Shown: in pieces, positions 17,353-57,712 of the stretch
How the letters are laid out: every line of letters starts with the position of its first letter
How positions within the stretch are numbered: position 1 is the stretch's first letter
Origin: Alphaproteobacteria bacterium
GTDB taxonomy: Bacteria > Pseudomonadota > Alphaproteobacteria > Rs-D84 > SZUA-605
Assembly (NCBI GenBank): GCA_031549385.1
Contig: JAVBPW010000005.1
Span: forward strand, 32,001-96,000
Direction: 5' to 3'
DNA length: 64,000 nt
Made by a program: the position numbers and the translations under genes
The notes under the pieces: model-generated
The model's database searches: none
What the model was told of the DNA's origin: nothing
The model's input: only the letters and a program-made list of their open reading frames with translations

Positions 17353-17440
17353 ATTGACAAAATTCTAGTTTGTGATAGTTTGTAGCTATTAAATTAAAAA
17401 ATCAATAAAAATAATCATAAATTTTAAAAACTTAAGAAAA

Positions 17441-18235
17441 ATGATAACTAATAAGGAATTTAGGTTCTTGAAGCGAGTTATGCTTATGAGCCAAGATGAA
17501 TTGGCTATGTGGATTTTGGCAACAGACATTTGTTCATATTTAGATGAGGCTCATGGGGATTTCGTTAAAAAGATTTGTTACCAATTTAAAACAAAAAAGG
17601 TTTGGGGGGAATTTATTGAAAAGTTTATTTCCCAAGAATTGTATTTTGAAGTTCTTACTGGTGAATTTCCTAAACTGAGGAAATTGCTTTTGAAAAAATT
17701 AAGCAATTCAATGAAAACTTGTACAGACAGGGAAGTTTGGTTTTATAATACTTGGAAGCCAAAATTTATTGCGGAGAAAATTTTAGAACAAGTGAAACTT
17801 TTGCCGGATTACAATGATTTGGTTCATTCGGATTACCCTTCATATTGGATTGAAGATAAGATTGAATTTCTTCGTGATTGTATTGTTTTGACATCGTTGA
17901 AGGGTAAAACCTTTGTTGATGAATGCGGAAAATATATGACTAAAGAAGGAGAGTTGTGGCGGAAATTGCTTTTCAAGAAACCTTGTACTGAAGCATACCG
18001 AAGTGCAATGATTCTTCCGGAAGACTTTTTTGTGGGCTATATCCACATGACGGTTTTATCGTGGAAAAAACTGGAAACAGATTCTGTAAATCATTTTATT
18101 CCAATTACCAATGTACTGTGTCAATATGCATACCGGGAAAGGTTATTTCGAGAAACTTTGGATCCGTTTTCAAGAGAAACTTTGATTATAAATGCAGGAT
18201 TAAGTGAGAAGATCGTGAATCACTTGTGCAAGTAA
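17441..18235 (+). CDS. Orphan hypothetical protein (solo-cassette type)
   Basis: 264 aa ORF, own TTGACA at 17354, A-rich leader without SD, more C/G-ending codons than neighbours; 3' end overlaps lpxK. Confidence 0.7.
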   Translation: MITNKEFRFLKRVMLMSQDELAMWILATDICSYLDEAHGDFVKKICYQFKTKKVWGEFIEKFISQELYFEVLTGEFPKLRKLLLKKLSNSMKTCTDREVWFYNTWKPKFIAEKILEQVKLLPDYNDLVHSDYPSYWIEDKIEFLRDCIVLTSLKGKTFVDECGKYMTKEGELWRKLLFKKPCTEAYRSAMILPEDFFVGYIHMTVLSWKKLETDSVNHFIPITNVLCQYAYRERLFRETLDPFSRETLIINAGLSEKIVNHLCK

Positions 18236-19132
18236 TTTTTCGTTTTCGATTTTATAAGTGATAGGCAAAAAGTCTATCACTTTTTTATATCTGTTTGGGA
18301 ATTTTACCCAATCTTTTGATGTGGTTATTGGAATTATGTTTTTAAATGTTGATATATCTTCTATTTCCTTTAATTCTTTATTTGTATATGCATGATGATC
18401 CATAAATGATTTAGCTACCGATATTTTTGCACCTGTTTCTCTTAGTGTATTATAAAATTTTTCTGGTTTGCCTATGCCTGCAAAAGCATAGTAAGCTTTG
18501 TATTTGCTTGGTTTGAACTTTGTTTGTACTTTTACTTCTATTACAGGGAAGTCTGTTAGTTTTTTCTTTATTCCTGTTTTGTCTGGACCTACTATTACAA
18601 ATGCATTGGCTCTTTTTTTACCAAATGATAGGTATTCTCTTAATGGGCCTGATGGAATTACTTGTCCATTGCCTAAACCTGTTTTACCGTCTATTACAAC
18701 GAATGAAAAATCTTTATAGATTGTTGGACTTTGAAAGCCGTCATCCATTATTAAAATGTTTGCTCCGTCTTTGATTGCCATTTGTGCTATTTTTGCTCGG
18801 TCTTCTCCTACATAGGTTGGAGCGGTGTAAGAGAGCATTAATGGTTCATCGCCTACATCTTTATAGTTATGAATTTTATTATTTACTTTTACGTATTTTA
18901 ATTTGCCTTTATAACCACGAGATAAAATTGCTGGTTTTAGTTTTTTTTCTTTTAAATAATTTGCTAAATATTCTGTGAATGGGGTTTTTCCTACGCCACC
19001 TACATTGATGTTTCCTACACAAATTACAGGAACACTTGCTTTGAATGGTTTTGAAAATTTAAGACGTAGTTGAGTGATTGCATTATATATTAAGCCTATT
19101 GGAATTAAAAAAAACTTTAATATTTCAATCAT
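18200..19132 (-). CDS. lpxK: Tetraacyldisaccharide 4'-kinase
   Basis: VGNINVGGVGKTP, SRGYKG, GDEP, MDDGFQ, PSGPLRE, TTSKD. Confidence 0.96.
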   Translation of the reverse strand: MIEILKFFLIPIGLIYNAITQLRLKFSKPFKASVPVICVGNINVGGVGKTPFTEYLANYLKEKKLKPAILSRGYKGKLKYVKVNNKIHNYKDVGDEPLMLSYTAPTYVGEDRAKIAQMAIKDGANILIMDDGFQSPTIYKDFSFVVIDGKTGLGNGQVIPSGPLREYLSFGKKRANAFVIVGPDKTGIKKKLTDFPVIEVKVQTKFKPSKYKAYYAFAGIGKPEKFYNTLRETGAKISVAKSFMDHHAYTNKELKEIEDISTFKNIIPITTSKDWVKFPNRYKKVIDFLPITYKIENEKLLAQVIHDLLT

Positions 19133-19884
19133 ATATCTTTACGCTTTTTTGTTAGGTCTCTTGGTTGTTGAGGTATTGGATCAAAACCAAATGTTGCGTC
19201 TGCCTCATGAAGTTCTTTTAACATCATTTTTTCATAATTGCGAGCTATTTCTTCAATTTCTTTGTCTGTTGCATCTTTTTTTACTATTAAAGGCTTGGAA
19301 AAATTTAAAACTGTTTTTCTGAAAAATCTTGGAATGAAGTATCTGTCCCAGTTTTTTGTTATTTTTCCTTTTTCGGAACTCCAAGCTAATGAATATATTG
19401 GGACTTGTAGTTTAGATGAAAAATAAAATGGTGAAAAAGCTTTTATTACAAATCTTGGTCCTGTTGGTCCATCGATTGTTAATGCAATTGAAGTATTGTT
19501 TTTTAGTGCTTTATAAATGGCTACTGCGGCGGCTTTTGAGTTTTCATTTGTTGAACCTCTTATTGCGCCTATTTTAAATCTTGTCATTATCTTTTCCATG
19601 AATATTCCATCACGATGAGTCGAAAAAATTGCTGCAGCATCATATTTACCTTTGAAAGTTGTTCTCCAAAATGGACCTACTACTAAACTTCTGCCATGCC
19701 AAAATAATAAAATCCCAGGACCTTTTGATAAAGTTTCTTTAAAGATGTCTATATTTTTGAATTTTATTCTTAGTGATTTATATAAGGCATATACATAAAG
19801 ATAGAGTATCCATGATACTATGAATACTACTACTTTACTAGTTCCGAGTGATTTGAAGAAATCATTTATGTAATTTTTTTTCAT
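19129..19884 (-). CDS. Lysophospholipid acyltransferase family protein (DUF374)
   Basis: FWHG, S.HRDG, IRGS, DGPTGP, WDRY.IP; next to lpxK. Confidence 0.88.
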   Translation of the reverse strand: MKKNYINDFFKSLGTSKVVVFIVSWILYLYVYALYKSLRIKFKNIDIFKETLSKGPGILLFWHGRSLVVGPFWRTTFKGKYDAAAIFSTHRDGIFMEKIMTRFKIGAIRGSTNENSKAAAVAIYKALKNNTSIALTIDGPTGPRFVIKAFSPFYFSSKLQVPIYSLAWSSEKGKITKNWDRYFIPRFFRKTVLNFSKPLIVKKDATDKEIEEIARNYEKMMLKELHEADATFGFDPIPQQPRDLTKKRKDI

Positions 19885-21085
19885 CTTTAATTTTTTGCTT
19901 TGTCTTTTCTAATTTTTTTTCTGTTTCTTTTACTTGTTTCTCAGAGATTTTACCTCTTTTTGAAGCATAATCTAAATTTTGCTCAATGTAAAGAGATTGT
20001 GAAGGGTAGGCAAAATGAGCACCATAACAATCAACTATATTCTTAATTGCAATAACAAGTCTTTCTTTTATTACTAAATATTCTGCCCATCTGTCTGAGG
20101 TTGTAAAGCAATAAATTAAAAGGTCTATTGATGATTTGCTGAATTCAGAAATTTTAACTTGAAATGGAAGTTTTCCTTTTTGAATACCTTCATCTTGTAA
20201 TAAATATGTTTCAATCTCATTTCTGATTGCTTGTAATTGCATAACTGATGTTCTGTATTCTAAACTTACAATCCATTCTATACGGCGATTTTGTCTTTCT
20301 GATAAATTTATAACAGCAAAATCAGCCAATTCAGAGTTTGGAATATAAATAGGCGCTTGGTCGTATTTTCTGATTTTTGTTGAACGGAAACCTATGTGTT
20401 CCACTGTTCCTGTTACTTCGTCTGATTTTTCTACTTTTATACGATCACCAACTGCAAATCGTTTTTCTGAAATGATTGTGATACCTGCTAAGATATTTTT
20501 AAATAAGTCTTTTGCACCTAATGCAACAGCCATACCAAATAGTCCTAATCCAGCTATGATTGGTCCAATTTGTACTCCCCAAATTTCAAGAATTAATGCA
20601 AAACCTGTAAATACAAGAACTATACGGAAGAATTTTATTATCCATTCTACTACTGGAGTTGTGAACTTTTTTGAATAGTTGTTCATTATCATTGCTATTG
20701 GATTTACAATGTTGTAGATAATCCAAAAAGATGAGAATATCCATAATGTCCTTATTATGTTGTGTTGAATGTTTAACCAAAATACAGAATTTGGTGTTAG
20801 TGATAAAAGTGCAAAATATAAACCTAATGCTATTGGTAAAAACTTTAATGGTTCTTCAAGTTCTTTTATTAATTCCATTCTGATATCTGGATGTTTGCGA
20901 AGAACTAATGTTTCTATATTTAAAACTATAAATTTTTTGATTAAATTTCGAAGAGTTAGAAAGAATACAACTATGATTAATGCCTTAATCCATTTAGCAT
21001 CTGGATTTATTAAAACCCAATTGATTGCTTGATATATATATTGATAGATTTGGTCAAACCATTGTATAGCGTTTTCTGTGTTCAT
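19862..21085 (-). CDS. Small-conductance mechanosensitive channel (MscS family)
   Basis: GLGLFGMAVALGAKD, F.VGD.I, GTVEHIGFRST, IPNS, FAYPS. Confidence 0.95.
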   Translation of the reverse strand: MNTENAIQWFDQIYQYIYQAINWVLINPDAKWIKALIIVVFFLTLRNLIKKFIVLNIETLVLRKHPDIRMELIKELEEPLKFLPIALGLYFALLSLTPNSVFWLNIQHNIIRTLWIFSSFWIIYNIVNPIAMIMNNYSKKFTTPVVEWIIKFFRIVLVFTGFALILEIWGVQIGPIIAGLGLFGMAVALGAKDLFKNILAGITIISEKRFAVGDRIKVEKSDEVTGTVEHIGFRSTKIRKYDQAPIYIPNSELADFAVINLSERQNRRIEWIVSLEYRTSVMQLQAIRNEIETYLLQDEGIQKGKLPFQVKISEFSKSSIDLLIYCFTTSDRWAEYLVIKERLVIAIKNIVDCYGAHFAYPSQSLYIEQNLDYASKRGKISEKQVKETEKKLEKTKQKIKDEKKLHK

Positions 21086-21151
21086 TTAAAATTCTCTCCT
21101 TACTTTTTTTATTGTAACATGTAGAGATTTGAAAATCAATAATATTGAAAT

Positions 21152-21176
21152 AAAAAAACCGGCATGGAAGCCGGTT
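21152..21176 (-). terminator. Intrinsic terminator of the orphan gene at 21209-21706
   Basis: Minus strand ACCGGC-TTCCAT-GCCGGT followed by a T run. Confidence 0.8.
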
Positions 21177-21208
21177 GTCATTGTTTGGATTTGTTGATTG
21201 GTTTTGAA

Positions 21209-21706
21209 CTACACGGTTGCCAATATCGGTGCCGTTACTTTTTCCAATACGAAAGGACCTCGTTCATTTTCACTTTTTCGATAAATAATCTCAGTGAAGT
21301 CGATTTCGGTGAAAGGAATTTCTCTTATTCCTCGAGGGCCGGCTACATAAAAATGGTCTTTTTTGGGTTCTATTTCAGAAGTGATGCTTTTTAAATAAGT
21401 CACATCTTCGGGAATGTTTCCCCAATAAAGTTTTTCTTTTATTGATCGGAAAACCTGACGAAAAACTTTCACTTTTTTGCTTTCTCCTTCACCTTCGGTG
21501 GTGTAGATGAGAAACATACACATCTTGTCTTCTTTTGTAGCAATTTCTATCAATTCTGAATTTGCTTCTCCAAGTGTGTCGAAGTCTTCAGTTAGTGGAA
21601 TTTCACCCGGATAAAAGCCCAACAGGTTGTTAGGGTTACGTTCTTGTCCTTCTTGAGGCATGAAAAATCCTTCAAGTAATAGTAATGCTTTGTATTTCTT
21701 GTCCAT
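21209..21706 (-). CDS. Orphan hypothetical protein (solo-cassette type)
   Basis: 165 aa ORF, own TTGACA (21771-21776), ACTTAAAAAT 8 nt before ATG, own terminator. Confidence 0.7.
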   Translation of the reverse strand: MDKKYKALLLLEGFFMPQEGQERNPNNLLGFYPGEIPLTEDFDTLGEANSELIEIATKEDKMCMFLIYTTEGEGESKKVKVFRQVFRSIKEKLYWGNIPEDVTYLKSITSEIEPKKDHFYVAGPRGIREIPFTEIDFTEIIYRKSENERGPFVLEKVTAPILATV

Positions 21707-21951
21707 TTTTTTTGATTTTTAAGTTTATAAATTATTGATTTGTTTAAAAATTAACTTTTATCTTTCAAAATGTCAAGAAAATTATAATATTTAAGAAATA
21801 TTATCGAAATTAGCTATTTTGCTTGACTTTGAGGCAAAAAGATTCTATTTTTACTTAGTTTTCTGGGGTACGACGGAAGACAATTAATTTTAACCGTGCA
21901 AGACCGACACAAATTAGTGTTTGGCGAAGTCAATATAAAGAAATTTTCAAA

Positions 21952-23640
21952 ATGGATAAAAAAAATTTAAATATGACTAATCAAGAATTTGAAGCATTGC
22001 TTGATTCTTATAAATCTCAACCTAAAGAAGGTTACTTAACTAAAGCTACTATTATCAATATCGATAAAAATATGGTTATCTTAGACGTTGGTCTTAAGAC
22101 AGAAAGCTATATTCCAAGACGTGAGTTTGGTGCTGATGAAATCAAAGCCGGCGATATTGTAGACGTGTTCGTTGAAAGATACGAAGGTCCTAATGGCTAT
22201 GTAGTTGCTTCTCGTGATAAAGCAAGACGTGAAGAAACTTGGTCTAAATTGGAAGAAAAAATTGCTAATAAAGAAAAAATCGAAGGTGTTATTACAGAAA
22301 GAATCCGTGGTGGATTTATTGTTGATCTTTACGGAGTGCTTGCATTCATGCCTGGATCACAAGCTGATGTAAGACCACTTCATAATCAAGATGAACTTGT
22401 TGGAAAAAAACAAGAATTCAAAGTTTTGAAAATGGATTATCAACGTTCAAATGTTATCGTTTCTCATCGTGCTGTGCTTGAAGAAGCTCAAGGTGAAAAA
22501 AGAAAAGAAATGATGAAAAACCTTAAAGTAGGGGATGTTGTTGAAGGAACTATTAAAAATATTACTGACTATGGTGTATTTATAGACCTTGGCGGAATTG
22601 ATGGACTTTTACATGTAATCGATCTTTCTTGGAAACGTGTTAATCACCCAAAAGAAATGTTGTCTGTTGGAGAAGCTATTAAAGTGAAAATCATCGGATA
22701 TGATGAAGAAACTCAAAGAATTTCTTTAGGATTAAAACAATTAACTGAAGATCCATACAAAGAATTAATGAAAAATATTAAAGTTGGAGACATTTTAGAT
22801 GGAAAAGTTTCATCTGTTGCTGACTATGGTGTTTTTGTTGAAATTGAAGGTGGTTTAGAAGGTTTAGTTCATGTGTCTGAAATGTCTTGGACTAAGAAAA
22901 ATGTTCATCCTTCAAAATTAGTTTCTGTTGGAGATAAAGTTAAAGTAAAAGTATTAGAAGAAGATGCTGAAAAAAGAAGACTATCATTTGGTATTAAACA
23001 AACTGAAGCTAATCCTTGGGATGCTTATGCTCAAAATCATAAATCAGGGGATGTAGTTGAGGGAATTGTTAAAAATATTACTGAATTCGGTTTATTCGTA
23101 TCTTTAGGTAATGATTTAGATGGTATGGTTCATATCGGAGATCTTGATTGGGACAGAAAAGGTGAAGAAGCTATTAAAGACTATAAAGTTGGTGATAAAG
23201 TTTCTGCTAAAATCTTGGAAATCAATCCTGAAAAAGAAAGAATTTCTCTTGGTATTAAACAAATCAAAGAAGATAGAGCTGAAGATAATTTGTCTAGATT
23301 AAAAAAGAATGATATTGTTACAGCTGTTATTAAAGAAATTACAGAAGATGCTTTAGTAGTAGATATTAATGGTATCAAAGGATTAATTGATAGAATTGAT
23401 TTGTCTATTGAAAAATCTGAACAAAGAACTGAAAGATTTGCAGTTGAAACTAAAATAGATGCTAAAGTTGTTTCAGTTTCTAAAAAAGATAAGACTGTTA
23501 AATTATCAGTAAAAGCTTTGGAACAAGACGAAGAAAAGAAAATGGTTAAAGAATATGGTTCTACTGAAAGTGGAGCTCAATTGAAAGACATTTTCGGAGC
23601 TGCGTTAGAAGAAGCTGAAGCTAAAAAGTTTAAGAAGTAA
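21952..23640 (+). CDS. rpsA: 30S ribosomal protein S1
   Basis: Six S1 repeats (DYGVFIDLGGIDGLLH, GLVHVSEMSW). Confidence 0.98.
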   Translation: MDKKNLNMTNQEFEALLDSYKSQPKEGYLTKATIINIDKNMVILDVGLKTESYIPRREFGADEIKAGDIVDVFVERYEGPNGYVVASRDKARREETWSKLEEKIANKEKIEGVITERIRGGFIVDLYGVLAFMPGSQADVRPLHNQDELVGKKQEFKVLKMDYQRSNVIVSHRAVLEEAQGEKRKEMMKNLKVGDVVEGTIKNITDYGVFIDLGGIDGLLHVIDLSWKRVNHPKEMLSVGEAIKVKIIGYDEETQRISLGLKQLTEDPYKELMKNIKVGDILDGKVSSVADYGVFVEIEGGLEGLVHVSEMSWTKKNVHPSKLVSVGDKVKVKVLEEDAEKRRLSFGIKQTEANPWDAYAQNHKSGDVVEGIVKNITEFGLFVSLGNDLDGMVHIGDLDWDRKGEEAIKDYKVGDKVSAKILEINPEKERISLGIKQIKEDRAEDNLSRLKKNDIVTAVIKEITEDALVVDINGIKGLIDRIDLSIEKSEQRTERFAVETKIDAKVVSVSKKDKTVKLSVKALEQDEEKKMVKEYGSTESGAQLKDIFGAALEEAEAKKFKK

Positions 23641-23781
23641 TAGTTTTACTTTTTAATATATTGGTTTTGAGTAATGTTATTTACTCAAAACCTTTTTCTT
23701 AATTTAAAATAGGAGGTTGTTTTCATTTATTGATTTTTATTTTTCAAATATGCTAAATTAACGCTTATAAAAGGAGTTTAT

Positions 23782-25242
23782 ATGTTTAAATATGGTGAAA
23801 AAGAAGTTCTTAAAGATTTAACTGATTTTGCTAAAGTAGGTTATGGTGCTGATTTTGTACCTTCATTTTATAAAAAAGTTAAAGAGTTTTTAACTCCAGA
23901 AATGAAAAATTTTAAAAAATACTATGAAGATAAAAACCATTTATTACAATTTTATTTTGTGGATGATTATTTTGATTATCGTGAAGAAGATATAAAAGAA
24001 AAACGAAAAACTATATATTGTTCAAAAGAATTTCAATCAAAAAAGTGGAGAAAAGATTTTGAAAAATATTATAAAAACTTTTTAAAGTTTTTACCAAATA
24101 AAGAAAGAAGAGATAGGTTTATAGACCCTAAGGTTGATTATATAATAAACTCTGGTCGAAGGGGAGCATTGGCTTTTACTTCTTTAGATTATATTTTAGG
24201 GAGGAATGAGTTGAATCATTGTACTTATATTTTTATGTTAAATAATTTTAATTCACCTTATACTATGATGCATACTTTTTTTCATGAAATGTGCCACATT
24301 GTTCAGATTAATAAGTACTATCCAAATATTTATAATGAATATAGGAAAAAAGTATGTGAAATACGTGAAAATGATTCTACAAGAATTAGAATTAATGAAT
24401 TTCGTAAAATAGATATAGAATATGATGATTTTTTTAGAAAATCAGATTATGAAAAAGAAGTTTGTGCTGATATATTTGGACCTTTTTGTGCTTTATTAAT
24501 TGCTTATAAAAGTCAAGATGTTGAGTTTATTAGATTTATAAAACATTTTATAAATAGAGTTAGTTTATATAAAGGCTTAAAAAAAGTAACTGGAAATAGT
24601 GATGGATTAGATTATTTTGCAAGACCTATTTTGAAATATATTATTCCTACTTTATCTGAAAAGAATTATGTGAAATTTTTTGATAAAAGTGGATATATTG
24701 ATTATGATTCTGTTTATGATTATTGCTTTAAATTTTTTAAAAAATATTGTTATAAATATGATGATTATAAGGATTTTGTTGATAAAGAAAGAAAACTTAT
24801 TGATGATGAAAAGAAAAAATTGAAAGACTTAAAAAAAGGAAAATCTGATGAAGAGGCTGAAAAACTTGAAATAAGAGCTTTTATGAATCTCCAAAAGAAA
24901 TATCCTAAAAATAAAATAATGAAAGATCTTATGGATGCTTATAATGAATATAAAAATTCTAAATTAACAAAAGAAGAACAGTTTTTTGAAGTATTTAGAG
25001 ATAAGTTATATAATGTTCCTTTAAATGTTTCTCTTAGAGATTGTAACGTTGTTAGAAATGAGCTTTTTGAAATTAGAAAAATTTCTAATAATTATTTAGA
25101 TAGAAAACAAAAATATAATAGAACGAAATTTGTAAAAAAAATGAAGAAGCAATACCCTTCACCTTTTATGAAAAAATATAAAAAATTAGAAAGTAGAGTG
25201 AAGAGTTTGTTTAGTAAAAAGAAAAGTGTTAAGAAAAAGTAA
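23782..25242 (+). CDS. Hypothetical Lys-rich protein with HExxH metallopeptidase-like motif
   Basis: FFHEMCHI and downstream EVCADIF; GGAG SD present. Confidence 0.55.
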   Translation: MFKYGEKEVLKDLTDFAKVGYGADFVPSFYKKVKEFLTPEMKNFKKYYEDKNHLLQFYFVDDYFDYREEDIKEKRKTIYCSKEFQSKKWRKDFEKYYKNFLKFLPNKERRDRFIDPKVDYIINSGRRGALAFTSLDYILGRNELNHCTYIFMLNNFNSPYTMMHTFFHEMCHIVQINKYYPNIYNEYRKKVCEIRENDSTRIRINEFRKIDIEYDDFFRKSDYEKEVCADIFGPFCALLIAYKSQDVEFIRFIKHFINRVSLYKGLKKVTGNSDGLDYFARPILKYIIPTLSEKNYVKFFDKSGYIDYDSVYDYCFKFFKKYCYKYDDYKDFVDKERKLIDDEKKKLKDLKKGKSDEEAEKLEIRAFMNLQKKYPKNKIMKDLMDAYNEYKNSKLTKEEQFFEVFRDKLYNVPLNVSLRDCNVVRNELFEIRKISNNYLDRKQKYNRTKFVKKMKKQYPSPFMKKYKKLESRVKSLFSKKKSVKKK

Positions 25243-25287
25243 ATAAAAAAATCCCGAAGTAAATAGGGATTTTTCTTTAGCTCCGTT

Positions 25288-27717
<2,430 letters not shown>

Positions 27718-27782
27718 TTAAAAAGCTTTCGGCAAGCAAAAAATTGTTGTTTTTTAGTCTTTTTTATAATATAATGATGTTT

Positions 27783-28391
27783 ATGAAGAGGGGAGTTTTT
27801 AGTTTTTGTTTTTTGATTGTAAGTGCTTATATTTCAAGCTCTTTTGCACAAAAAATTGTTGACAATGAAAAAGATTGTAATTTGATGCTACGTAGAAAAT
27901 TTTTGCAGTTTTGTGATAATGGTCAGGAATTGAATAATTACAAAGAATGTTTAGAATCAGAGTATGAACAAATGTCTAAATATTTAAATATAGAATCAGA
28001 AATGCCAGAGTGTATTAATGAAGCTAAGACAGAATATAATGCATTTAAAGTTCAACAAAAAGAATTGCAGAATAATCAGAGTCAAAATTCAAGTGAGTGT
28101 ATAAAATCAAAACAAAATTTAAGTGCTGTTGAATATTGTGTTAGGTATGCTAAATCACTTGGTGAATTTAGAATGAGAAGTTATTCTAATAGATATAAAA
28201 TTGATAATATGTGTGGTGAAAAAGTTATTGGAAATAACTCTGTGAGAAATGCTATATATAATTTAGTTTTTCAAAAAAATATAATTGTGATTGATCCATC
28301 ATTAATTATGCTTACTGAAGATTATAATAAAGGTATGGATAAAATTTATAATGAGTATTTGGCAAAAACCAAAATGTTTTGTGGGGAATAA
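27783..28391 (+). CDS. Secreted Cys-rich hypothetical protein
   Basis: Signal peptide MKRGVFSFCFLIVSAYISSSFA; about 8 spaced Cys in the mature part. Confidence 0.6.
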   Translation: MKRGVFSFCFLIVSAYISSSFAQKIVDNEKDCNLMLRRKFLQFCDNGQELNNYKECLESEYEQMSKYLNIESEMPECINEAKTEYNAFKVQQKELQNNQSQNSSECIKSKQNLSAVEYCVRYAKSLGEFRMRSYSNRYKIDNMCGEKVIGNNSVRNAIYNLVFQKNIIVIDPSLIMLTEDYNKGMDKIYNEYLAKTKMFCGE

Positions 28392-28524
28392 TTTTGAAAA
28401 TTTGTTGCGAAGCAAAAGAATTGAAAATTATTCTTGTTTTTATGAATTTTGTTAGGAATTTTTGTTTCTAGTTTTTAATCAAATTTTATGATATAATTAG
28501 CAAAATTATTTAAAGGAGTATCTT

Positions 28525-29259
28525 ATGTTTTTTACAGAAAAACCAGCAATTTCTATTATAGTTACTGTATATAATGATGCAAAACATTTAGAAGGTTGTA
28601 TCGAATCTATACTTGCTCAAACTTTTACCAGATTTGAAGTTATTATTGTTGATGATGGATCAACTGATAATAGTTTGAAAATATGCAAAGATTATGAATT
28701 ACAAGATAGAAGAATAAGAGTTTATCATCAAAAACATCAAGGAGCTATTGTTGCTCGTAATTTTGCTATTACTATTGCTAAAGGGGAATATATATTTCCT
28801 ATGTATGGTGATGATAAATTAAACGAAAGTGCTTTGTTTAAAATGTATGAAGCAATTCAAAACCAAGCGGCTGATGTGGTTTATTCTAATACTGAAACTT
28901 TTGATAACAGTAATGATATTATTGAAATGTCATTACCTGATAGAAATAACCCTTCAGGATGTGATATTAGTGTTTGCTCTGCGCTTTATAAAAAGGGAGA
29001 TTGGAAGAATTATCAAGGTTATGACCCTAATGTTGATTCTGATTTAAATCATTGGGAGTTTTGGCTTAACTTTATTGAAGATAGCAAGAAAATTGTAAAA
29101 CTTGATGATGCTTTGGTTTATTACAGAGAAAAAACAACTAATGTTTCTCCTGAAGATAAAAAACGAGTATTTGAATATTCTAAAAATAAACATAAGAAGC
29201 TTTATAATGCCCCTTTTGGAATGTTGCTTGATAGTGTTAAGAAATTATTCAAATTGTAA
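28525..29259 (+). CDS. Glycosyltransferase family 2
   Basis: ISIIVTVYN, SILAQT, VDDGSTD, ARN; the DxD region is degenerate (MYGDD). Confidence 0.9.
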   Translation: MFFTEKPAISIIVTVYNDAKHLEGCIESILAQTFTRFEVIIVDDGSTDNSLKICKDYELQDRRIRVYHQKHQGAIVARNFAITIAKGEYIFPMYGDDKLNESALFKMYEAIQNQAADVVYSNTETFDNSNDIIEMSLPDRNNPSGCDISVCSALYKKGDWKNYQGYDPNVDSDLNHWEFWLNFIEDSKKIVKLDDALVYYREKTTNVSPEDKKRVFEYSKNKHKKLYNAPFGMLLDSVKKLFKL

Positions 29260-29260
29260 T

Positions 29261-29286
29261 AAAAAAGGTGGCAAAAGCCACCTTTT
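29261..29286. terminator. Bidirectional terminator, left copy of a duplicated hairpin
   Basis: AAAAAAGGTGGC-AAAA-GCCACCTTTT. Confidence 0.85.
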
Positions 29287-29295
29287 GTTTTTTAT

Positions 29296-29712
29296 TTACC
29301 AGTCGATACATCGTCTTCCGGTTTTAACTTCTTTCCACTGACTATCATTTCCATATCCTTCAATAATATAACCAATGAGGAGTCCGTTGAAGTATAATTC
29401 AGTGTGGCGAAAATCTCCTAAAGCTGGATTTTTCTTTATTTCAACATTTCCTGTTTTCAGTTCGTCCATATAAAGAAGGGGAATTTTGGAAAGAGTGCCA
29501 CTGACAAGCCAACGCATTACAAAAGGCGCATCAATAAACCCGATTTTTTCTTTTTCTTCTGATAATAATTCAGCAGGTGCCAATTTTCCTTTGGGAGTAA
29601 ATTTGATTTTTAAGAACTTTTTGAGTTCTTTATTCCAGACTATACCAAGGTCTTCACCTGATTTGCTCATAAAATCATAAGCAATGCTTGTTTGGGGAAT
29701 TTTTGAATCCAT
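29296..29712 (-). CDS. Orphan hypothetical protein (solo-cassette type)
   Basis: 138 aa ORF, own TTGACA (29768-29773), ACTTAAAAAT 8 nt before ATG. Confidence 0.7.
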   Translation of the reverse strand: MDSKIPQTSIAYDFMSKSGEDLGIVWNKELKKFLKIKFTPKGKLAPAELLSEEKEKIGFIDAPFVMRWLVSGTLSKIPLLYMDELKTGNVEIKKNPALGDFRHTELYFNGLLIGYIIEGYGNDSQWKEVKTGRRCIDW

Positions 29713-29779
29713 AAAATTTGATTTTTAAGTTTTAGAATGTTTTTAAATTAATATAAGGGTTTAATTTTGTCAAGGAATT

Positions 29780-29803
29780 AAAAAAGGTGGCGTTAGCCAC
29801 CTT
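29780..29803 (-). terminator. Terminator of rpsF-rpsR-rplI, right copy of the duplicated hairpin
   Basis: AAAAAAGGTGGC-GTTA-GCCACCTT on the plus strand. Confidence 0.85.
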
Positions 29804-29822
29804 ATTTATTTTTTCAAAGATA

Positions 29823-30272
29823 TTATTCTTGAGTGTTTGTTACAACTACATCAATTAAAGCTGAAACTTCTGGGTGAAGAGCAATCTTCACTTTGAATGT
29901 TCCTAATTCTTTGATTGGGGTGTTAATTATTACATTGTGTGTAGTTAATTTGATACCTAAATCTTTTAACAATTCTAAGATATCTTTTGGAGATACTGAT
30001 CCAAATAATCGGCCTGTATCACCAGCTTGTCTTACGATTGTGAAAGATTTACCATTCAAAGTATCTGCTATGCTTTGTGCTTTTTCTTTTTGTAGTTTGC
30101 TTTCAAGTTCAATGTCTTTTTTCATATCTGCAAATACTTTTGTATTTTGAGCATTTGCTTTTAATGCTTTTTTTAGTGGAAACAAGAAGTTTCTTGCATA
30201 TCCTGCTTTTACTTCCACTGTATCGCCGAGATGACCTAATTTTTCTATTTTTTCTAATAATATTACTTTCAT
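29823..30272 (-). CDS. rplI: 50S ribosomal protein L9
   Basis: MKVILLE, VKAGYARNFLFP, GRLFGSV, LHPEV. Confidence 0.98.
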   Translation of the reverse strand: MKVILLEKIEKLGHLGDTVEVKAGYARNFLFPLKKALKANAQNTKVFADMKKDIELESKLQKEKAQSIADTLNGKSFTIVRQAGDTGRLFGSVSPKDILELLKDLGIKLTTHNVIINTPIKELGTFKVKIALHPEVSALIDVVVTNTQE

Positions 30273-30284
30273 ATTATTCACCTC

Positions 30285-30506
30285 TTATTTGTTGTTTCTT
30301 ACGAATGGAAGAAGACCAATTATTCTTGCTCTTTTAATTGCTAGTGCTAATTGTCTTTGGTTCTTTGGTTTTACCCCAGTTATACGTGATGGTAAAATTT
30401 TTCCACGTTCTGATATATATTTTTCTAATAAAACTATATTTTTATAGTCTATTACTTTACCTTCAAGTGGATCACTCTTCTTGCGAAATACTAATGATTT
30501 AACCAT
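30285..30506 (-). CDS. rpsR: 30S ribosomal protein S18
   Basis: [24 protein letters not shown]; no zinc-ribbon Cys. Confidence 0.98.
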
Positions 30507-30508
30507 AA

Positions 30509-30868
30509 TTATGCTCCTTCTTGTTCAGTTTCAGTTGTTTCTTCTTTTTTGTTTTTCAACATTGAAGAAATAGTTTTATCTTTTGAATCTAGAGATATTG
30601 TCATAAATCTGATAACGTCGTCAGAAATTCTTAAATTTCTTTCAAGTTCAGTAATTGCAGCAGCTGGGCCGTCAATTCTTAACATATGATAATATGCTTT
30701 TTTATTCTTGTTGATTGGGTATGCTAGTGATAACAACCCCCAGTTTTCTTTGTAGAAAACTTCAGCTTTTGAATTAGATAAGATTTTTTCAAAATTCTTT
30801 ACTAAGTCATCTGCTTGAGCGGGAGTTAAATCCCTACGTGATACTATCACGGTTTCAAAGTATGCCAT
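30509..30868 (-). CDS. rpsF: 30S ribosomal protein S6
   Basis: MAYFETV, WG...[22 protein letters not shown]; start at 30868 behind AAGGAG. Confidence 0.97.
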
Positions 30869-30874
30869 AATGTT

Positions 30875-30938
30875 CTCCTTATGGTTAGCGTTTAACTTAT
30901 TGTTAATGCCATCTGAGAAATCATTTCCCAGAAAGGAC
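30875..30938 (-). promoter_or_regulatory. S6:S18 ribosomal protein leader
   Basis: Leader GTCCTT...CCATAAGGAG: TCCTT/AAGGA pairing sequesters the SD, with the CCR motif next to it, as in the known rpsF leader. Confidence 0.65.
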
Positions 30939-31052
30939 ATGGGTAGAAGTTATATGTTTTTAGTCTATAAGTCAAGGAAAAAAGATGTTTATCCTTGTAA
31001 TTGTCAAATTATCATTTATATTAAATAGGAAATTTAATCCGAGGATAATTAT

Positions 31053-32948
31053 ATGTTTAAGAAAAAAATTCTAATTTGGTTGGCTGTTATTTTGGTTGTT
31101 TTTGGAGTGTCTGAGATTGTTGCTCGCAAAAACCCTGAATTGTTTGCATCTAAGAAAGAAAAAGAAGCAGCTTTAGTGTTTTCTGACTTTGTTAATGATG
31201 TTAAGGCAAAAAAGATAAAAAGTGTTATTATTTACGATAATAAAAAAGTTCAAGGTGAGTTTAAAGATGGAAAAAAATTCGAAACTCAAATAGTTGATTA
31301 TCCAAAACTTTATGAATTATTAGAAACCAATAAGGTTAGTGTTGAAATAAAAGATGCTAAAACAGGTATAGGATATTATCTTTTGAATATTTTGCCCACT
31401 TTACTTTGGGTTTTTGTATTACTTCTTATTATTAGAAGTTTTCGTTCATCATTTTCTGGTGGAAAAGGGGGAGGTGGTGGAAGTCCTTTTTCTTTTGGGG
31501 AGTCTAAAGCTAAGCTTTTAACCAAAGATAAATTGAAAATTACATTTGATGATGTAGCTGGTATTGATGAGGCTAAGAAAGATGTTGAGGAAATTGTAGA
31601 ATTTTTAAAGAATCCTAAGAAATTTGCTGATTTAGGTGGAAGAATTCCTAAAGGTGTACTTTTAACTGGTCACCCTGGAACAGGTAAGACTTTACTTGCT
31701 AAGGCTATTGCTGGGGAGGCGGATGTTCCTTTCTTTTCTATGAGTGGATCTGACTTTGTTGAAATGTTTGTTGGAGTTGGTGCTTCTCGTGTACGTGATT
31801 TATTCGAAAATGGTAAGAAGAATGCTCCTTGTATTATATTTATAGACGAAATTGATGCTGTGGGACGTCATAGAGGTGTGGGCTATGGTGGTGGAAATGA
31901 TGAAAGAGAACAAACTCTTAACCAATTACTTGTAGAAATGGATGGATTTGAAAGTAATGAAGGGGTTATCCTTATAGCTGCTACTAATAGGTCTGATGTT
32001 CTTGACTCTGCTTTGATGAGACCAGGGCGTTTTGATAGACAAATCTATGTATCTCTTCCAGATGTTAAGGGTAGGGAAGCTATATTAAAAATACATGCTA
32101 AAAAGATTAAGGCTGCTAATGATATAGACCTTAATGTAATTGCTAGAGGAACTGTTGGTTTTTCTGGGGCTGATTTAGCTAACCTTGTTAATGAAGCTGC
32201 TTTGATTGCTGCACGTAATAACCATAAGGAAGTTACTTCACATGATTTTGATATGGCAAGAGATAAAATCTTAATGGGAGCTGAGAGAGCAACAGTACTT
32301 GATCCTAAGGAATTAGAGCTTACAGCTTATCATGAAGCAGGGCATGCGTTTATTGGTACTGTGATTGAAGGGTTTGATCCTATACATAAGGCTACTATTA
32401 TTCCAAGAGGTGAAGCATTGGGTATGGTACAACATTTGCCTGAAAAAGATAAAGTATCCCAAAGTTTAAAACAAATTAAGGCTGATATATCTGTTTGTTG
32501 CGCTGGGAGAATTTGTGAAGAAACATTCTTTGGTAAAGAAAATGTTACTACTGGAGCTTATTCTGATATAAGACATGCTACTAATTTAGCTCGTAATGTT
32601 GTTACAGTTTGTGGACTTAGTGAAAACTTAGGTTTTATAGCATATAAAGAAAATGCGCTGGGTTATGGTGAAAGTGCGCCTAAATTTAATGTGTCTAATG
32701 AAACGGCATTGCTTATTGATAAGGAAGTTAAAAAACTTATTGATGATTGCTATGACGTGGCTAAGAAATTAGTTGTTAAAAATAAAGATAAAATAAAAGA
32801 ATTGGCAGAAGCATTGCTTAAATATGAAACTTTAACTGGTGATGAAATCAAAGATATTATTGCTGGTAAAAAGTTGGATAAAAAAATTGTTAAAAAGCCA
32901 GTTGAAGTTAAAAAGACTTCTGTTATGGATAAGGCTAAACAAATATAA
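31053..32948 (+). CDS. ftsH: ATP-dependent zinc metalloprotease FtsH
   Basis: Two TM helices, [27 protein letters not shown]. Confidence 0.98.
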
Positions 32949-32951
32949 AAT

Positions 32952-32980
32952 AAAAAAGCTCCTAAATAGGAGCTTTTTTT
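32952..32980. terminator. Bidirectional terminator
   Basis: AAAAAAGCTCCT-AAAT-AGGAGCTTTTTTT. Confidence 0.85.
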
Positions 32981-32992
32981 ATCTCAGTTTTA

Positions 32993-33685: not shown

Positions 33686-33786
33686 GAAGATAATTTTAAC
33701 ATTATTAGGAATAAAATCAAATGAAATTATTTTGATATTAAATTTGACAAAGTTAGATTATTTTTATATCTTGTTTGCATACATTT

Positions 33787-33909: not shown

Positions 33910-33924
33910 GATAAAAAAAACAGG

Positions 33925-41630: not shown

Positions 41631-41850
41631 ATAAAAATCTCCTTTAAATAGAATCGTTTACAGAATCTATTATATCATAAAAGAAAATTATTTGATAGTT
41701 ATATAATTATCAAATTATTATTTAATTCAAAAAATATAATATTTTCAATGGAAGAAAATGTTTTTTTTATTTTGCCTTTTGTATTGAAATTTTTATTGCT
41801 GTTACTACATAAAGCTAAAGAATAAATAATTAAACTTAAAAATTAAATGT

Positions 41851-42102: not shown

Positions 42103-42225
42103 TGTGTGGAAAAAGTAGAGGTTAGTGTAAAGTTGGGAGTCCAGAGAAATCTGGGCTCTTTTTTATTCTATTTTTTACTTTATTTTAATAAATATATTAT
42201 TATAATCTTGGTTTAAGGGGAGAAA

Positions 42226-47424: not shown

Positions 47425-49650
47425 ATGTCAGAACAAAACAAATTAGATATAAAAGAAGAACAATTATTAGATGCATTATCTAAAAGATATTTAGATTATG
47501 CTATTTCGACTATTGTAGATCGTGCTTTACCTGATGTGCGTGATGGTTTAAAGCCTGTGCACCGAAGACTTTTATATGCTATGAGAGTTCTTAGACTTAA
47601 TCCTAAAACTGCTTTTAAAAAGTGTGCCAGAGTTGTTGGTGATGTTATTGGTAAATATCATCCTCATGGGGATGTTGCTGTTTATGAAGCTATGGTACGT
47701 TTAGCGCAAAATTTCTCTGTAAGATATCCTCTTGTTGATGGACAAGGTAATTTTGGAAATATCGATGGAGATAGTGCTGCTGCTATGCGATATACAGAAG
47801 CACGTCTTACTGAAGCTGGCGAAGTTTTAATGAGAGATTTGGATAAAGATACTGTGGACTTTATCGATAATTATGATGGTTCAGAAGAAGAGCCTGTTGT
47901 AATGCCTGCTGCTTTTCCTAATTTGTTGGCTAATGGTGCTATGGGGATTGCTGTGGGGATGGCGACTAATATTCCTCCACATAATGTAGATGAATTATGT
48001 ACCGCTCTTACACATTTGATTAAAAATCCAGATATGACTGTTGCTAAATTGGTTGATTACGTTAAAGGTCCTGATTTTCCAACTGGTGGAACTGTTATTG
48101 ATAAAAAAGCTCATATCGTTAATATATATGAAAAAGGAATGGGTGCTTTTACTATTAGAGCTAAATGGGAAAAAGAAGAACTTTCTTATGGAAATTATCA
48201 AATTGTTATAACTGAAATTCCTTATGGAGTTGTTAAATCTAAATTAATTGAAAAAATTGCAGATTTGATGGAGCAAAAAAAACTTCCGTTCATCAATGAC
48301 ATTAGAGATGAATCTGCTGAAGATGTAAGAATTGTTATTGAACCTAAAAATAGAACTATTGAAGTTGATATTTTAATGGCTCATTTGTTTAAAACTACTG
48401 ATTTAGAATCTAAGTTTAATATGAATATGAATGTTCTTGATGCACAATCTGTTCCTCGTGTTATGAACTTAAAAGAAGTATTAGTTGAATTTTTAGCTCA
48501 CAGACGTATTGTTTTGACAAGAAAATCTAATTTCAGATTGAAAAATATTGAAAATAGACTTGAAGTGTTAGATGGGTTCTTAAAGGCTTATCTTAATTTA
48601 GATAGAGTTATTGCTATTATCAGGGAGAATGATGAACCTAAACCACTTCTTATAAAAGAATTTGAATTAACTGATACTCAAGCTGATGCTATACTTGATA
48701 TGAAGTTGCGTTCTCTTCGTAAATTGGAAGAAATGGAACTTAAAAATGAACATGCTAAACTTTCTAAAGAAAGAAAAGAACTTTTGGAATTACTTGGTTC
48801 TGATTTGAAAATAGATGAAGCATTAATTGCTGAATTTGATGAAATCAAAGAAATTATGGGAAAGAAAACTAAGTTTGGAAAAAGAAGAACTCAGTTGCAA
48901 GAAGCAGATACAGATATTGTTATCGATGAAAATGCTTTTATTGAAAAAGAGCCTATTACAGTTTTACTTTCAAAGCGAAATTGGATAAGGGCAGTTAAAG
49001 GCCATCAAGATTTGAATGAAAAATTTCCTGCTAAAGAAGGTGATGAAAATAAATTTGCTTTCCATGTTATGACTAATGAAAAGATTTTAATTGCTGCTAA
49101 TAATGGTAAGTTTTATACAATTGGAGCAGATAAAATTAGTCGAGGTAAGGGATTTGGAGAGCCTATTTCATTATTGATAGATATTGAAGATGGTGTGGAA
49201 ATTCTTGATGCATTCAAATATGAAGAAGGTCAAAAATTATTGCTTGTTAATGATAACGGTGTTGGTTTTGTGACTAATACAGATAATGTCTTGGCTGTTA
49301 CAAAAACAGGGCGTATTGTATTTAACCTAAACATATCAGAAAAATTAGAAAAAATATTTAAAATTACTGATGGCGATGATAAAGTTGCTATTATTAGTGA
49401 TGATAGAAAACTTTTAATCTTTAATTTAGAAGAAATACCAGAACTTTCAAAAGGAAAGGGTGTTATCTTACAAAAATATCGTGAAAATAAAATGTCAGAT
49501 GTGATTACTTTTAACAGTAAAGAAGGGTTATACTGGATTACTGGAAGAGGAAAGACTGTGGTTGATAATTATGTACTTTGGGAAAGTAAACGTGCTAACC
49601 AAGGGTATTTTGCGATGCCAAATTTTCCAAAATCCAATAAGTTTATCTAA
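47425..49650 (+). CDS. parC: DNA topoisomerase IV subunit A
   Basis: [45 protein letters not shown], 741 aa with no GyrA-box evident. Confidence 0.95.
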
Positions 49651-56785: not shown

Positions 56786-56917
56786 TAAAATTCCTTTATA
56801 TTTTATATAAAAGATAATAAATATTAATTATTTGTCAAGTTTTATTTGATTGATTATAGAAAATGGTGTGTTAATAATTGATTTAACAAATAAAAATCAA
56901 ATTTAATAAATACTTAT

Positions 56918-57670
56918 ATGAAAAATGTTATAATTGTTGGATTTGGCAGCATGGGAAAAATGATTGCCAAGAATATCTATGAGTCTGAAGATTTTAAACT
57001 CATTGATATTGTTGATCCGGAAAAAATTGAGCAAACCATTTATGGGCTGAAAGTGAAAGAAAGTATTCATGATACAGATTATGATAAAGCAAATTTGGTT
57101 ATTGATGCTAGTTTACCCAAATGTGTGTTTGAAAATTGTTTACAGTCTATTGGACTTGGGCTTGAAGTTTTGGTTGTTGCCACTGGTTTGAGTAAAGAAC
57201 AAGTTGATGAATTGGGAAAATCAAAAAGAATATTTATTTCATCAAATTATTCGATTGGAATGAATATGTTGTTCAAATCGGTTCGTCAATTAGCCCCGTT
57301 ATATGCTTATGTGGAAATTATGGAGACTCATGCAGATACAAAAGCTGAAGTGCCTTCTGGGACGGCTATTACAACATCTCGAATATTGGTAGAAGCAAAC
57401 CCTGAACTAGCCAACAGAGTTTATAAAGGTGTTGAATTATATCCTGGTTCTCTTGGGGCAAATGTCAATGGTATTCGTGTTTGTGCTCGTCGGGTTCCTC
57501 CCGGGTATCCTACCGTGCAAACTGTGAAGTTTTATTCAACAAGCGGTGAAACGTTTGAGTTGCATCATGAGGTTTTGGGGCGGGAGTCTTATTGGGATGG
57601 TATTAAAATTGCTGCTGAACATTTGCTCGAAAATGGGGGGTTTTACAGGAGCCTTGAAGAAATCCTGTAA
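56918..57670 (+). CDS. Divergent dihydrodipicolinate reductase (DapB-like)
   Basis: G.GSMGK, VVATG, SNYSIG, ETHADTKAEVPSGTA (canonical E.HH..K.DAPSGTA). Confidence 0.8.
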   Translation: MKNVIIVGFGSMGKMIAKNIYESEDFKLIDIVDPEKIEQTIYGLKVKESIHDTDYDKANLVIDASLPKCVFENCLQSIGLGLEVLVVATGLSKEQVDELGKSKRIFISSNYSIGMNMLFKSVRQLAPLYAYVEIMETHADTKAEVPSGTAITTSRILVEANPELANRVYKGVELYPGSLGANVNGIRVCARRVPPGYPTVQTVKFYSTSGETFELHHEVLGRESYWDGIKIAAEHLLENGGFYRSLEEIL

Positions 57671-57689
57671 CTTGTTACGCTATAAATTA

Positions 57690-57712
57690 AGGCCTCTTTC
57701 GAGGCCTTTTTT
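57690..57712 (+). terminator. Intrinsic terminator
   Basis: AGGCCTC-TTTC-GAGGCCT followed by a T run. Confidence 0.85.

Follow-up and report, generated by a model that had tools for sequence, protein, structure and literature searches.

The window analysed here, 64,000 nucleotides (nt) from the genome of an alphaproteobacterium (contig C2, positions 32001–96000; sites elsewhere in this genome are given as contig and position), contains five small orphan genes. Four of them are preceded by the box AAACTTAA and one by a variant of it (Table 1). Genes with this box recur throughout the genome, and there is hardly any doubt that it is shared by about 60 small genes which are mutually unrelated, restricted to the species and foreign-looking in composition, and that it replaces the usual ribosome-binding site in front of them.

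A preliminary description of the window had pointed to four decamers shortly before the ATG of such orphans, and all of them were found at the positions and distances given there: ACTTAAAAAT at 21715–21724 (−), 29721–29730 (−) and 41834–41843 (+), ending 8, 8 and 7 nt before the ATGs at 21706, 29712 and 41851, respectively, and CCTTAAAAAT at 34425–34434 (−), ending 9 nt before the ATG at 34415. The same description had cautioned that the decamer also occurs by chance, e.g., inside parC; indeed, three of the seven copies in the window are chance copies. Within the window alone the count of 7 compares with 3.09 expected, and 4 of 100 shuffles reached 7. Looser versions of the element had been listed before three further starts; that at 17441 proved to be a full member, with the box 5 nt before the ATG, whereas 56918 is the start of dapB, which is no orphan, and no box is present before 63375.

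Table 1. Positions in the window of the box units, of further copies and of neighbouring features; RNA contigs are from library X1 (see text), aa stands for amino acids and ORF for open reading frame.
Feature	Position	Strand	Details
Unit 1	17354–18292	+	TTGACA 17354–17359; TAGTTT 17376–17381; box AAACTTAA 17428–17435
Unit 1 ORF	17441–18235	+	264 aa, orphan; terminator hairpin 18256–18282 and T-run
Unit 1 RNA contig	17425–18142
Unit 2	21157–21776	−	TTGACA 21776–21771; TAATTT 21753–21748; box AAACTTAA 21726–21719
Unit 2 ORF	21706 (ATG) to 21209	−	165 aa, orphan; terminator 21176–21157
Unit 2 RNA contig	21184–21722
Unit 3	29263–29773	−	TTGACA 29773–29768; TAATTT 29750–29745; box AAACTTAA 29732–29725
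Unit 3 ORF	29712 (ATG) to 29296	−	138 aa, orphan; two-way terminator 29263–29286
Unit 3 RNA contig	29338–29713
rplI terminator	29803–29784
Unit 4 (variant box)	34066–34475	−	TTGACA 34475–34470; TAATAT 34452–34447; AAACCTTAAAAAT 34437–34425
Unit 4 ORF	34415 (ATG) to 34119	−	98 aa, orphan; terminator 34087–34066
Unit 4 RNA contig	34079–34422
tRNA-like gene	34626–34697	−	shortened anticodon loop; Rfam 44.5 bits
tRNA gene	34723–34796	−	CTA (amber-reading) anticodon, A-C mismatch in anticodon stem; Rfam 54.7 bits
Unit 5	41832–42165	+	box AAACTTAA 41832–41839; only a weak −35 (TTGAAA) upstream
Unit 5 ORF	41851 (ATG) to 42102	+	83 aa, orphan; hairpin and T-run at about 42135–42165
dapB (dihydrodipicolinate reductase)	56918–57670	+	Pfam match; leader without Shine-Dalgarno sequence, AAAAATCAA half, no AAACTTAA
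Hydrophobic ORF, non-member	63142–63375	−	77 aa; TTGACA-17-TATATT, no box
Chance decamer copy	13727–13736	+	in coding DNA
Chance decamer copy	34524–34533		inside terminator hairpin 34538–34515
Chance decamer copy	48738–48747		inside parC
Autotransporter, large	6751–9324	+
Autotransporter, large	38757–41630	−

Recurrence of the box and anatomy of its leaders

The genome comprises 931,143 bp on 8 contigs, has about 30% GC and is 97% complete. Its 16S rRNA is alphaproteobacterial (top match of 84% to Thalassospira and Rhizobium in a plasmid/chromid collection) and has the canonical 3' end GGATCACCTCCTTTC, i.e., the CCTCC anti-Shine-Dalgarno sequence is present. An earlier remark on Bacteroidota, with their A-rich initiation regions, therefore does not apply to this host. 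Genes were called with our own script, which combines ORFs and a codon score; it yielded 894 genes covering 88% of the genome, considers ATG starts only and is crude, and every statistic on called starts given below rests on it. A Shine-Dalgarno (SD)-like 4-mer was present at −17 to −4 in 62% of the called genes, compared with 11% of random positions, with AAAGGAG as consensus.

In the 25 nt before the start of the 337 genes without SD, AAACTTAA and AACTTAAA occurred in 47 and 45 cases, respectively, where intergenic DNA would predict 2.2 and 1.7, and the top enriched words of this gene set all reduced to one motif. AACTTAA ranked first among 105 letter permutations at 5–19 nt before a called start, with 55 of 384, the best unrelated permutation reaching 10 of 280. 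Variants in which the first A of the box is replaced by T, C or G mostly had a real SD behind them; thus, the box proper is AAACTTAA, which is mostly extended to YAAACTTAAAAAT(CAA). For MCTTAAAAAT, 23 of the 41 copies in the genome have an ATG 0–12 nt downstream that opens an ORF of at least 60 aa, two of these ATGs resembling internal methionine codons of long genes. The 12-mer AAACTTAAAAAT was found in 22 copies in the host genome, compared with 6 for the reversed control, and its counts in 30 relatives were near those of their reversed controls. The positional recurrence, which had been named as the actual signal, was thus strongly borne out at the level of the genome.

Of 84 candidate sites, defined as AACTTAA with an ATG 3–19 nt downstream that starts an ORF of 40 aa or more, 12 seemed to be internal to longer ORFs. 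A strict filter, requiring AAACTTAA and none of the SD-like 4-mers GGAG, GAGG, AGGA and AAGG behind the box, left 61 sites; three sites that had been flagged but have a clear promoter were then restored, and one false positive was taken out (C2:45223, window 13223–13471, where a box and an ATG lie antisense inside murG). The resulting 63 genes, about 7% of the genes of the genome (931 kb), have the box 3–19 nt (mode 11) before the ATG and no SD. The class has at least these 63 strict members, and further genes carry versions of the box with one mismatch.

The position of the box is tied to the start codon. In the 61 strict sites the distance from its end to the ATG, with a mode of 11 nt, has a standard deviation of 3.2 and amounts to 10–13 nt in 38, compared with a standard deviation of 11.1 for the distance from the −10 hexamer to the box. 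The latter is bimodal, with 6–8 nt in 11 and 17–24 nt in 21 of 38 units, and the distance from box to ATG is equal in both classes. Between −40 and −1 of starts, 55 forward copies stand against 2 reverse-complement copies. The eight core positions are identical by definition of the set; beyond them, the preceding base is a pyrimidine (T or C) in 57 of the 63 members and never G, 56 members have A at +8 and 54 have A at +10, and ATCAA often comes next. Adenine occupies −13, −12 and −11 in 48, 56 and 53 of the 63 (76%, 89% and 84%), compared with 40–62% in other gene sets. Most positions that separate the box from the ATG, and most of those from −21 to −6, lack G; its fraction in −25 to −1 is 1.9%, compared with 11.7% in other non-SD genes. 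A site of the SD type was rejected, since the members are poor in G beyond the effect of the 4-mer filter, although the 16S rRNA has CCTCC. The predicted minimum free energy of the region from −30 to +30 is −2.1 kcal/mol for members, −3.9 for SD genes and −4.3 for other non-SD genes.

A typical member is a self-contained unit of promoter, leader, ORF and terminator, and most members are built in this way, as had been proposed for the genes of the window. TTGACA (at most one mismatch), followed after 16–18 nt by TAnnnT, lies upstream of 38 of 61 members and of 108 of 844 other genes, and a terminator-like hairpin follows 35 of 61 members and 156 of 833 other genes. For the final set of 63, our own count of the listing gives 40 with a promoter of this kind, 30–45 nt upstream. 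A scan tool also detected the terminators in the window and the promoter at 34475. The ORFs are short, with a median length of 132 aa compared with 242 aa in other genes. Solitary insertion, which had been described for the window, is seen there, but genome-wide 23 of the 63 lie in small arrays and 40 are solo. Twelve members are found at most 70 nt behind a gene on the same strand; nine of these, trailing the preceding gene by 17–67 nt, have no intervening promoter and nevertheless keep the box. Leaderless starts, or starts proximal to a −10 hexamer, were rejected as an explanation, since the conserved part is the box and not TAnnnT, a separate promoter is present farther upstream in the 40 members mentioned, and RNA contigs (see below) extend 7–16 nt beyond the ATG on its upstream side in three of four units. 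A propagated module of promoter and leader was rejected as well: in ten units with equal spacing, the 20-nt stretch between the −10 hexamer and the box showed an identity of 0.39, compared with 0.37 after shuffling, and the only near-identical pair of modules seen is C5:76685 with C6:23726.

Relatives, composition and probable insertion sites of the carrier genes

Clear Pfam domains were found in three of the 63 members, namely KdsA, dCTP deaminase (Dcd) and a PyrF-PyrE fusion, whereas 39 of 54 other ORFs of the window have a domain at a threshold of 1e-5; one further member had a borderline match to SAICAR_synt (21.8 bits, with a cut-off of 20). No orphan matched the PHROGs, and neither Pfam nor PHROG gave a match for the ORFs of units 1 and 5. 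An all-against-all BLAST search divided 65 box proteins into 62 components, i.e., the members are mutually unrelated. The nearest genus is represented by a genome, here called G001, of the same family (84% complete, 671 kb compared), whose RpsA is 69% identical to that of the host; synteny at rpsA is not conserved between the two. By tblastn, a match in G001 was obtained for 2 of 65 box genes, for 481 of the 842 other genes and for 185 of 401 other genes of at most 233 aa. Thus, the box marks a real class of orphans without SD, as had been suspected, and it is nearly absent from vertically inherited genes instead of being equally common before core genes. The 165-aa protein of unit 2 has no counterpart in 40 relatives and only a self-match among 1.84 billion representative sequences, the 264-aa and 138-aa proteins of units 1 and 3 match only themselves among 5.8 billion proteins, and for the 98-aa protein of unit 4 no match, not even to itself, was found in a public protein collection. 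The fused orotidine monophosphate (OMP) decarboxylase-phosphoribosyltransferase (C5:46095–47426, −; 444 aa, in the order PyrF-PyrE) has a box leader and a G+C content at third codon positions (GC3) of 0.37; its match in the nearest genus is limited to the transferase part (169 aa, 34% identical).

The claim that the carriers use more codons ending in C or G than the host could be substantiated. GC3 is 0.292 in members and 0.171 in other genes (P = 5e-31), and values of at least 0.26 occur in 40 of 63 members but in only 31 of 842 others. Lineage specificity does not explain this shift, since GC3 is 0.172 in the 361 other genes without a match in G001. The codons enriched in the members are those avoided by the host, i.e., CGG (42-fold; 35 in 9018 codons of the 63 members, 24 in 261957 codons of the other 842 genes), CCG (6.9-fold), CTG (6.2-fold) and AGG (4.3-fold). 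The 60 most conserved genes shift in the opposite direction at codons ending in G, which argues that the codon bias of the members is not due to selection for expression. Among 37 tRNA genes found by ARAGORN, a tRNA-Arg(CCG) was absent; the tRNA-Arg anticodons present are ACG, TCT and CCT. KdsA, Dcd and PyrF-PyrE share the composition of the class (GC3 0.34–0.37), and kdsA of G001 carries an ordinary AAAGGAG SD. In the window, dapB has a GC3 of 0.28 and no match in the nearest genus.

Occupied and empty sites could be compared, as had been recommended, at four places where both flanks lie on one G001 contig. These harbour six units, the solo ones C5:68990 and C7:429413 and the pairs C6:23726–24741 and C5:57696–59795, and the counterparts in G001, of 12, 108, 167 and 184 bp, are empty. 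With their atypical codons and these empty sites the members look like recent foreign insertions, and a foreign origin of the class is probable. As to how they arrived, a common donor or a common capture mechanism had been proposed. The foreign codon usage is consistent with a common donor pool, but no sign of capture was found: the longest word shared by the two flanks, examined for repeats and att-like sites, had a mean of 10.9 nt, compared with 11.1 nt in mismatched pairs, and exceeded the 95th percentile in 5 of 63. Capture of the integron or another cassette type was therefore rejected, flanking recombination sites or direct repeats not being above control.

A degenerate, related signal is present on the non-SD genes of the nearest genus itself. 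With the same pipeline, TTAAAC was found 25 times (3.6 expected) and AAACCTA 7 times (0.6 expected) in front of these genes in G001; this looser relative of the box often stands behind TTGACA-type promoters, and the genes concerned are of unknown kind. With this pipeline no second motif was obtained for G020, a relative belonging to another family (30.5% GC, 400 kb compared). A 16S rRNA was not found in the DNA examined of G001 or G020. Downstream of rplI, i.e., at the position of unit 3, G001 has an ORF of 130 aa (L068:861–1253, −), whose protein is unrelated to that of unit 3 and whose layout is terminator, TTGCCA-16-TAATCT, 21 nt, TAAACGGTA, 5 nt, ATG. Apparently, each genus has used this site for an orphan gene of its own.

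Four of the units are represented in an RNA library. X1 is a metatranscriptome run from invertebrate gut, which is stored as contigs and carries no information on strand or ends; it holds 25% of the sampled words of positions 21001–31000 of the window. Of eight X1 pieces listed for positions 17001–37000, four coincide with units 1–4, without mismatches (Table 1). The contig of unit 4, with a depth of 55, is the deepest of the eight, the others ranging from 3.5 to 5.9. The two contigs which reach the 3' end of the ORF, those of units 2 and 4, end at or inside the predicted terminators.

Possible modes of action

We hold with about even confidence that the box is an SD-independent box for translation initiation or its control, which marks a class of acquired genes. 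In this case 5'-YAAACUUAAAAA(UCAA)-3' would be a signal at the level of the mRNA, substituting for the SD on a distinct class of genes. A unit would consist of a sigma-70 promoter (TTGACAAA-17-TAnnnT), a G-free, unstructured leader of 20–35 nt with the box, the ATG, a small ORF and a terminator; with the box ending about 11 nt before the ATG, its AAA would be placed at −13 to −11. The leader could recruit 30S subunits without pairing to the anti-SD, and the invariant AAACUU could be read by a factor specific to the lineage, be it a protein or a ribosomal state, with the class being translated or silenced as a group. We infer action on translation, a factor in trans and co-regulation from the arrangement of the box, which with respect to strand, linkage to the ATG and operon-internal use is positioned like an mRNA-level signal and so agrees with the regulon, read by an RNA-binding protein or ribosomal protein S1, that had been suggested. 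The members would be recent foreign arrivals and may be substrates of type IV secretion, since a VirB4 gene is present. Selection in the host has likely kept the box, because box and spacing have stayed intact although the similarity of their surroundings has dropped to that of shuffled sequence. A donor origin and a regulon, which had been offered as alternatives, are compatible, and the data favour both, i.e., genes of foreign origin on which the host maintains the box by selection.

Several observations weigh against an initiation signal. Since the set was defined by exact AAACTTAA and ATG, conservation of the core is partly circular, and several intergenic copies of the box lie 25–32 nt from the next ATG. 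The discrete distance between the −10 hexamer and the box is not required of a pure ribosome-binding site and could point to a role at the DNA level or one dependent on the 5' end. Pairing with rRNA cannot explain the box, since complements of it are absent from the 16S rRNA (TTAAGTT, TAAGTTT and TTTAAGT) and from the rRNA operon region C6:1001–7000 (TTAAGTT, TAAGTTT and TTAGGTT); the best antiparallel match between box and 16S rRNA, G-U pairs included, is 9 of 12. Ribosomal protein S1, to our knowledge, does not read a defined 8-mer and thus would not explain the box by itself. The RNA contigs end 1, 7, 16 and 16 nt before the ATGs and include the whole box in only one of four cases, and DNA carry-over in the X1 contigs cannot be excluded. 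Public gene calls start downstream of the ATGs assumed here, giving 255 instead of 264 aa for unit 1 and 150 instead of 165 aa for unit 2; the call for unit 2 begins at Met16, behind GAAGGA, and the ATG at 21706 is a predicted start. Translation of the members, the 5' ends of their transcripts and a binding factor are predictions from the sequence, as is action at initiation.

The two discrete classes of distance to the −10 hexamer (6–8 and 17–24 nt), with no conservation in between, would be expected of a DNA operator, i.e., a site just downstream of the promoter (at about +2 to +9 or +15 to +22) from which a transcription factor represses or activates the whole class at transcription. Some leaders contain two or three box-like copies 13–15 nt apart, and a gene for an OmpR-type response regulator adjoins unit 4 in the window, both of which would fit. 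Yet it is the distance to the ATG, not that to the promoter, which is fixed in both classes; the box is present on the nine operon-internal genes without promoter; a DNA site would need neither the 55:2 strand bias nor the G-free, unstructured context; and a second half-site of the CtrA or PmrA type (TTAA-N7-TTAA) is missing, with no TTAA signal at positions 15–18 after the start of the box. An operator therefore seems unlikely. We judge it similarly improbable that the box passively records where the genes came from, i.e., one unsampled donor pool such as a phage or plasmid lineage of the host, and is no more than a tolerated leader. The single non-host codon usage, with CGG in use without a tRNA-Arg(CCG), would be explained, as would the composition shared by KdsA, Dcd and PyrF-PyrE in the face of a normal SD on kdsA of G001, the empty sites in G001 and the two odd tRNA genes beside unit 4. 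However, an intact box and spacing amid surroundings at the level of shuffled sequence need selection in the host, and no orphan matched a phage family in the PHROGs. Scans of viral and genome collections with the extended leader AAACTTAAAAATCAAN{2,8}ATG gave, among the matches listed, a single match per stretch, in unrelated taxa; 38 of the 80 genome matches listed were from Bacteroidota by our own count of titles, and the listed matches are read as background. Phage genes, moreover, are usually polycistronic and do not have one promoter and terminator each.

An influence on the fate of the mRNA, with the box as a 5' stabiliser or as a site of endoribonuclease cleavage or processing which sets the half-life of the class, appears less likely again. 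In 11 units the box, 6–8 nt after the −10 hexamer, would form the extreme 5' end of the predicted transcript, and for three of the four units an RNA contig ends in or beside it. The end of a contig, however, is not that of an RNA, and the relation of these ends to the box is inconsistent (one lies 3 nt upstream of it, one within it, and two lie 2 and 12 nt downstream); furthermore, in 21 of 38 units the box lies inside the leader, and the fixed distance to the ATG is left unexplained. Chance recurrence of a word rich in A and T, or an artefact of gene calling, could be suspected from the window count, which by itself is not significant, and from the crudeness of the gene caller. The tests described above (47 vs 2.2 expected; rank 1 of 105 permutations; the 12-mer in excess of its reversed control in the host but not in 30 relatives; no second motif with the same pipeline in G020, of similar GC and another family; an independent association with GC3, use of CGG and orphan status) refute this explanation, and its probability is practically nil.

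The reading as an initiation signal can be carried further, to a proposal which is doubtful: one ribosome pool would serve two initiation channels, core genes being initiated through the SD and acquired genes only through YAAACUUAAAAA at −22 to −11, which a lineage-specific factor or ribosomes in a particular state (e.g., with or without bS21) would recognise. A block of 60–90 foreign orphans, possibly type IV secretion substrates, could then be switched independently of housekeeping translation. The VirB4-like gene lies at C7:273139–273723; it and two large autotransporters in the window, one of them with Chlamydia-PMP-type repeats, are possible candidate routes for secreted proteins. A marker of type VI secretion, TssC, was not found. 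A segment of the 16S rRNA (C6:2138–2146), on the same strand as the box, contains AAACTTAAA within the conserved AAACTYAAAGGAATTGACGG and presumably corresponds to about position 907–915 in E. coli numbering. This would be mimicry and not complementarity; the chance of a 9-mer match within 1.5 kb is below 1% by a rough estimate made after the fact.

Comparison with known systems

SD-independent initiation is otherwise known mainly as a genome-wide habit, in Bacteroidia, or as a loose effect of A/U-rich sequences. The sections on "group B" in the GeneMarkS-2 study (PMC6028130) describe SD-less, A-rich initiation regions for Bacteroidia, and there a non-SD motif before operon-internal genes is taken to argue for a ribosome-binding signal and not for a promoter. 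For Flavobacterium johnsoniae, the relevant part of Baez et al. 2019 (PMC6847099) reports that A at −14 to −11, especially at −12 and −13, correlates with translation efficiency, and predicts that the mRNA at the A-rich element is close to S1. As far as these accounts go, the box leaders resemble those of Bacteroidia in the absence of an SD despite a canonical anti-SD, in an A-rich element at about −12, in low structure, in the scarcity of G and in operon-internal use; they differ in having, instead of a loose A-rich pattern which serves nearly every gene, a sharp 8–12-mer with an invariant C and TT on about 7% of the genes. Of the features of group B, an A-rich element and low structure were thus found, but the motif does not precede the great majority of genes (63 of 894). 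By analogy, the 3' half of the box may behave like an SD-less element of the Bacteroidia type; the invariant AAACUU of the 5' half has no counterpart there. Here 62% of the genes use an SD, and the box genes are compositionally foreign orphans, unlike the signal found throughout Bacteroidia; also, the promoters are of the TTGACA type and not of the TAnnTTTG type of Bacteroidia.

In Flavobacteriia, the presence or absence of bS21 alters how ribosomes read mRNAs with and without SD, according to the portions available of two reports (PMC9976891, PMC7797042), and in Bacteroidota an exceptional SD of rpsU marks autoregulation of bS21 through ribosomes which lack it (PMC9976891); the portion available of the latter report contains no statement on Alphaproteobacteria. 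In the host, too, rpsU (C7:157211–157417, +) has the strongest SD of the 894 genes (GGGGGTGAT, −17.0 kcal/mol; the next −15.1, the median −6.0), which as far as those portions go is like the situation in Flavobacteriia. For sequestration of the anti-SD by bS21, bS18 and bS6, a feature of the Bacteroidia type, the SD of rpsU is only an indirect hint here. The rpsU of G020 is preceded by the same GGGGGTGA, yet this genome has no box class; thus, a link between rpsU and the box is conjectural.

Short words in the ribosome-binding site also mark post-transcriptional regulons, e.g., those of CsrA/RsmA (GGA) and Hfq-Crc (an A-rich CA motif), which include acquired effectors in Legionella. The box is similar to them as a short word at a set distance from the start codon of many unrelated genes. 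A regulon of the CsrA/RsmA type was rejected, since GGA is absent from the nearly G-free leaders and a sponge RNA, i.e., a non-coding cluster of at least three boxes outside gene leaders, was not found. The epsilon enhancer UUAACUUUA of T7 gene 10 is said to pair with helix 17 of the 16S rRNA; it acts with an SD, and enhances initiation independently of it. It shares AACUU, richness in A and U and a position upstream of the start with the box; an enhancer of this type was rejected, there being neither an SD nor a complement of the box in the 16S rRNA. Phage morons sit in prophages, and the dispersed effectors of Legionella share the PmrA box, a DNA site upstream of the −10 hexamer. Like both, the members are single, foreign, lineage-specific genes of atypical composition, placed among resident genes, with their own promoter and terminator and a shared cis element; unlike the PmrA box, this element is located in the leader and tied to the ATG.

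Relative to these systems, the case would appear to be a novel form of SD-independent initiation or else of a regulon marked by its leaders; the literature searched yielded no description of it. A search for AAACTTAA together with translation initiation returned only unrelated papers among the matches listed, from which "unpublished" cannot be claimed. A sharp box divides a small genome into two classes of genes, which are also distinct in where they came from, in their codons and in their degree of conservation. Should a specific factor read this box, it would represent a natural private translation channel for acquired genes, and could perhaps provide insight into how the reduced genome of a symbiont expresses or quarantines foreign genes. 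It also supplies a sequence rule for locating small orphan genes, and true starts, missed by standard gene callers, which seem to miss box-led genes or to place their starts wrongly (as with the absent 98-aa protein of unit 4 and the shortened calls for units 1 and 2).

Two minor features of the window may be added. The terminators of rplI and of unit 3 have a near-identical stem (GGTGGC/GCCACC), with different loops, and bracket unit 3; they look like a duplicated terminator, and this pattern is not general across the class. The two odd tRNA genes, one of them with an amber-reading anticodon, lie directly upstream of unit 4. TAG is the stop codon of 143 of the 894 called genes and is therefore not generally reassigned.

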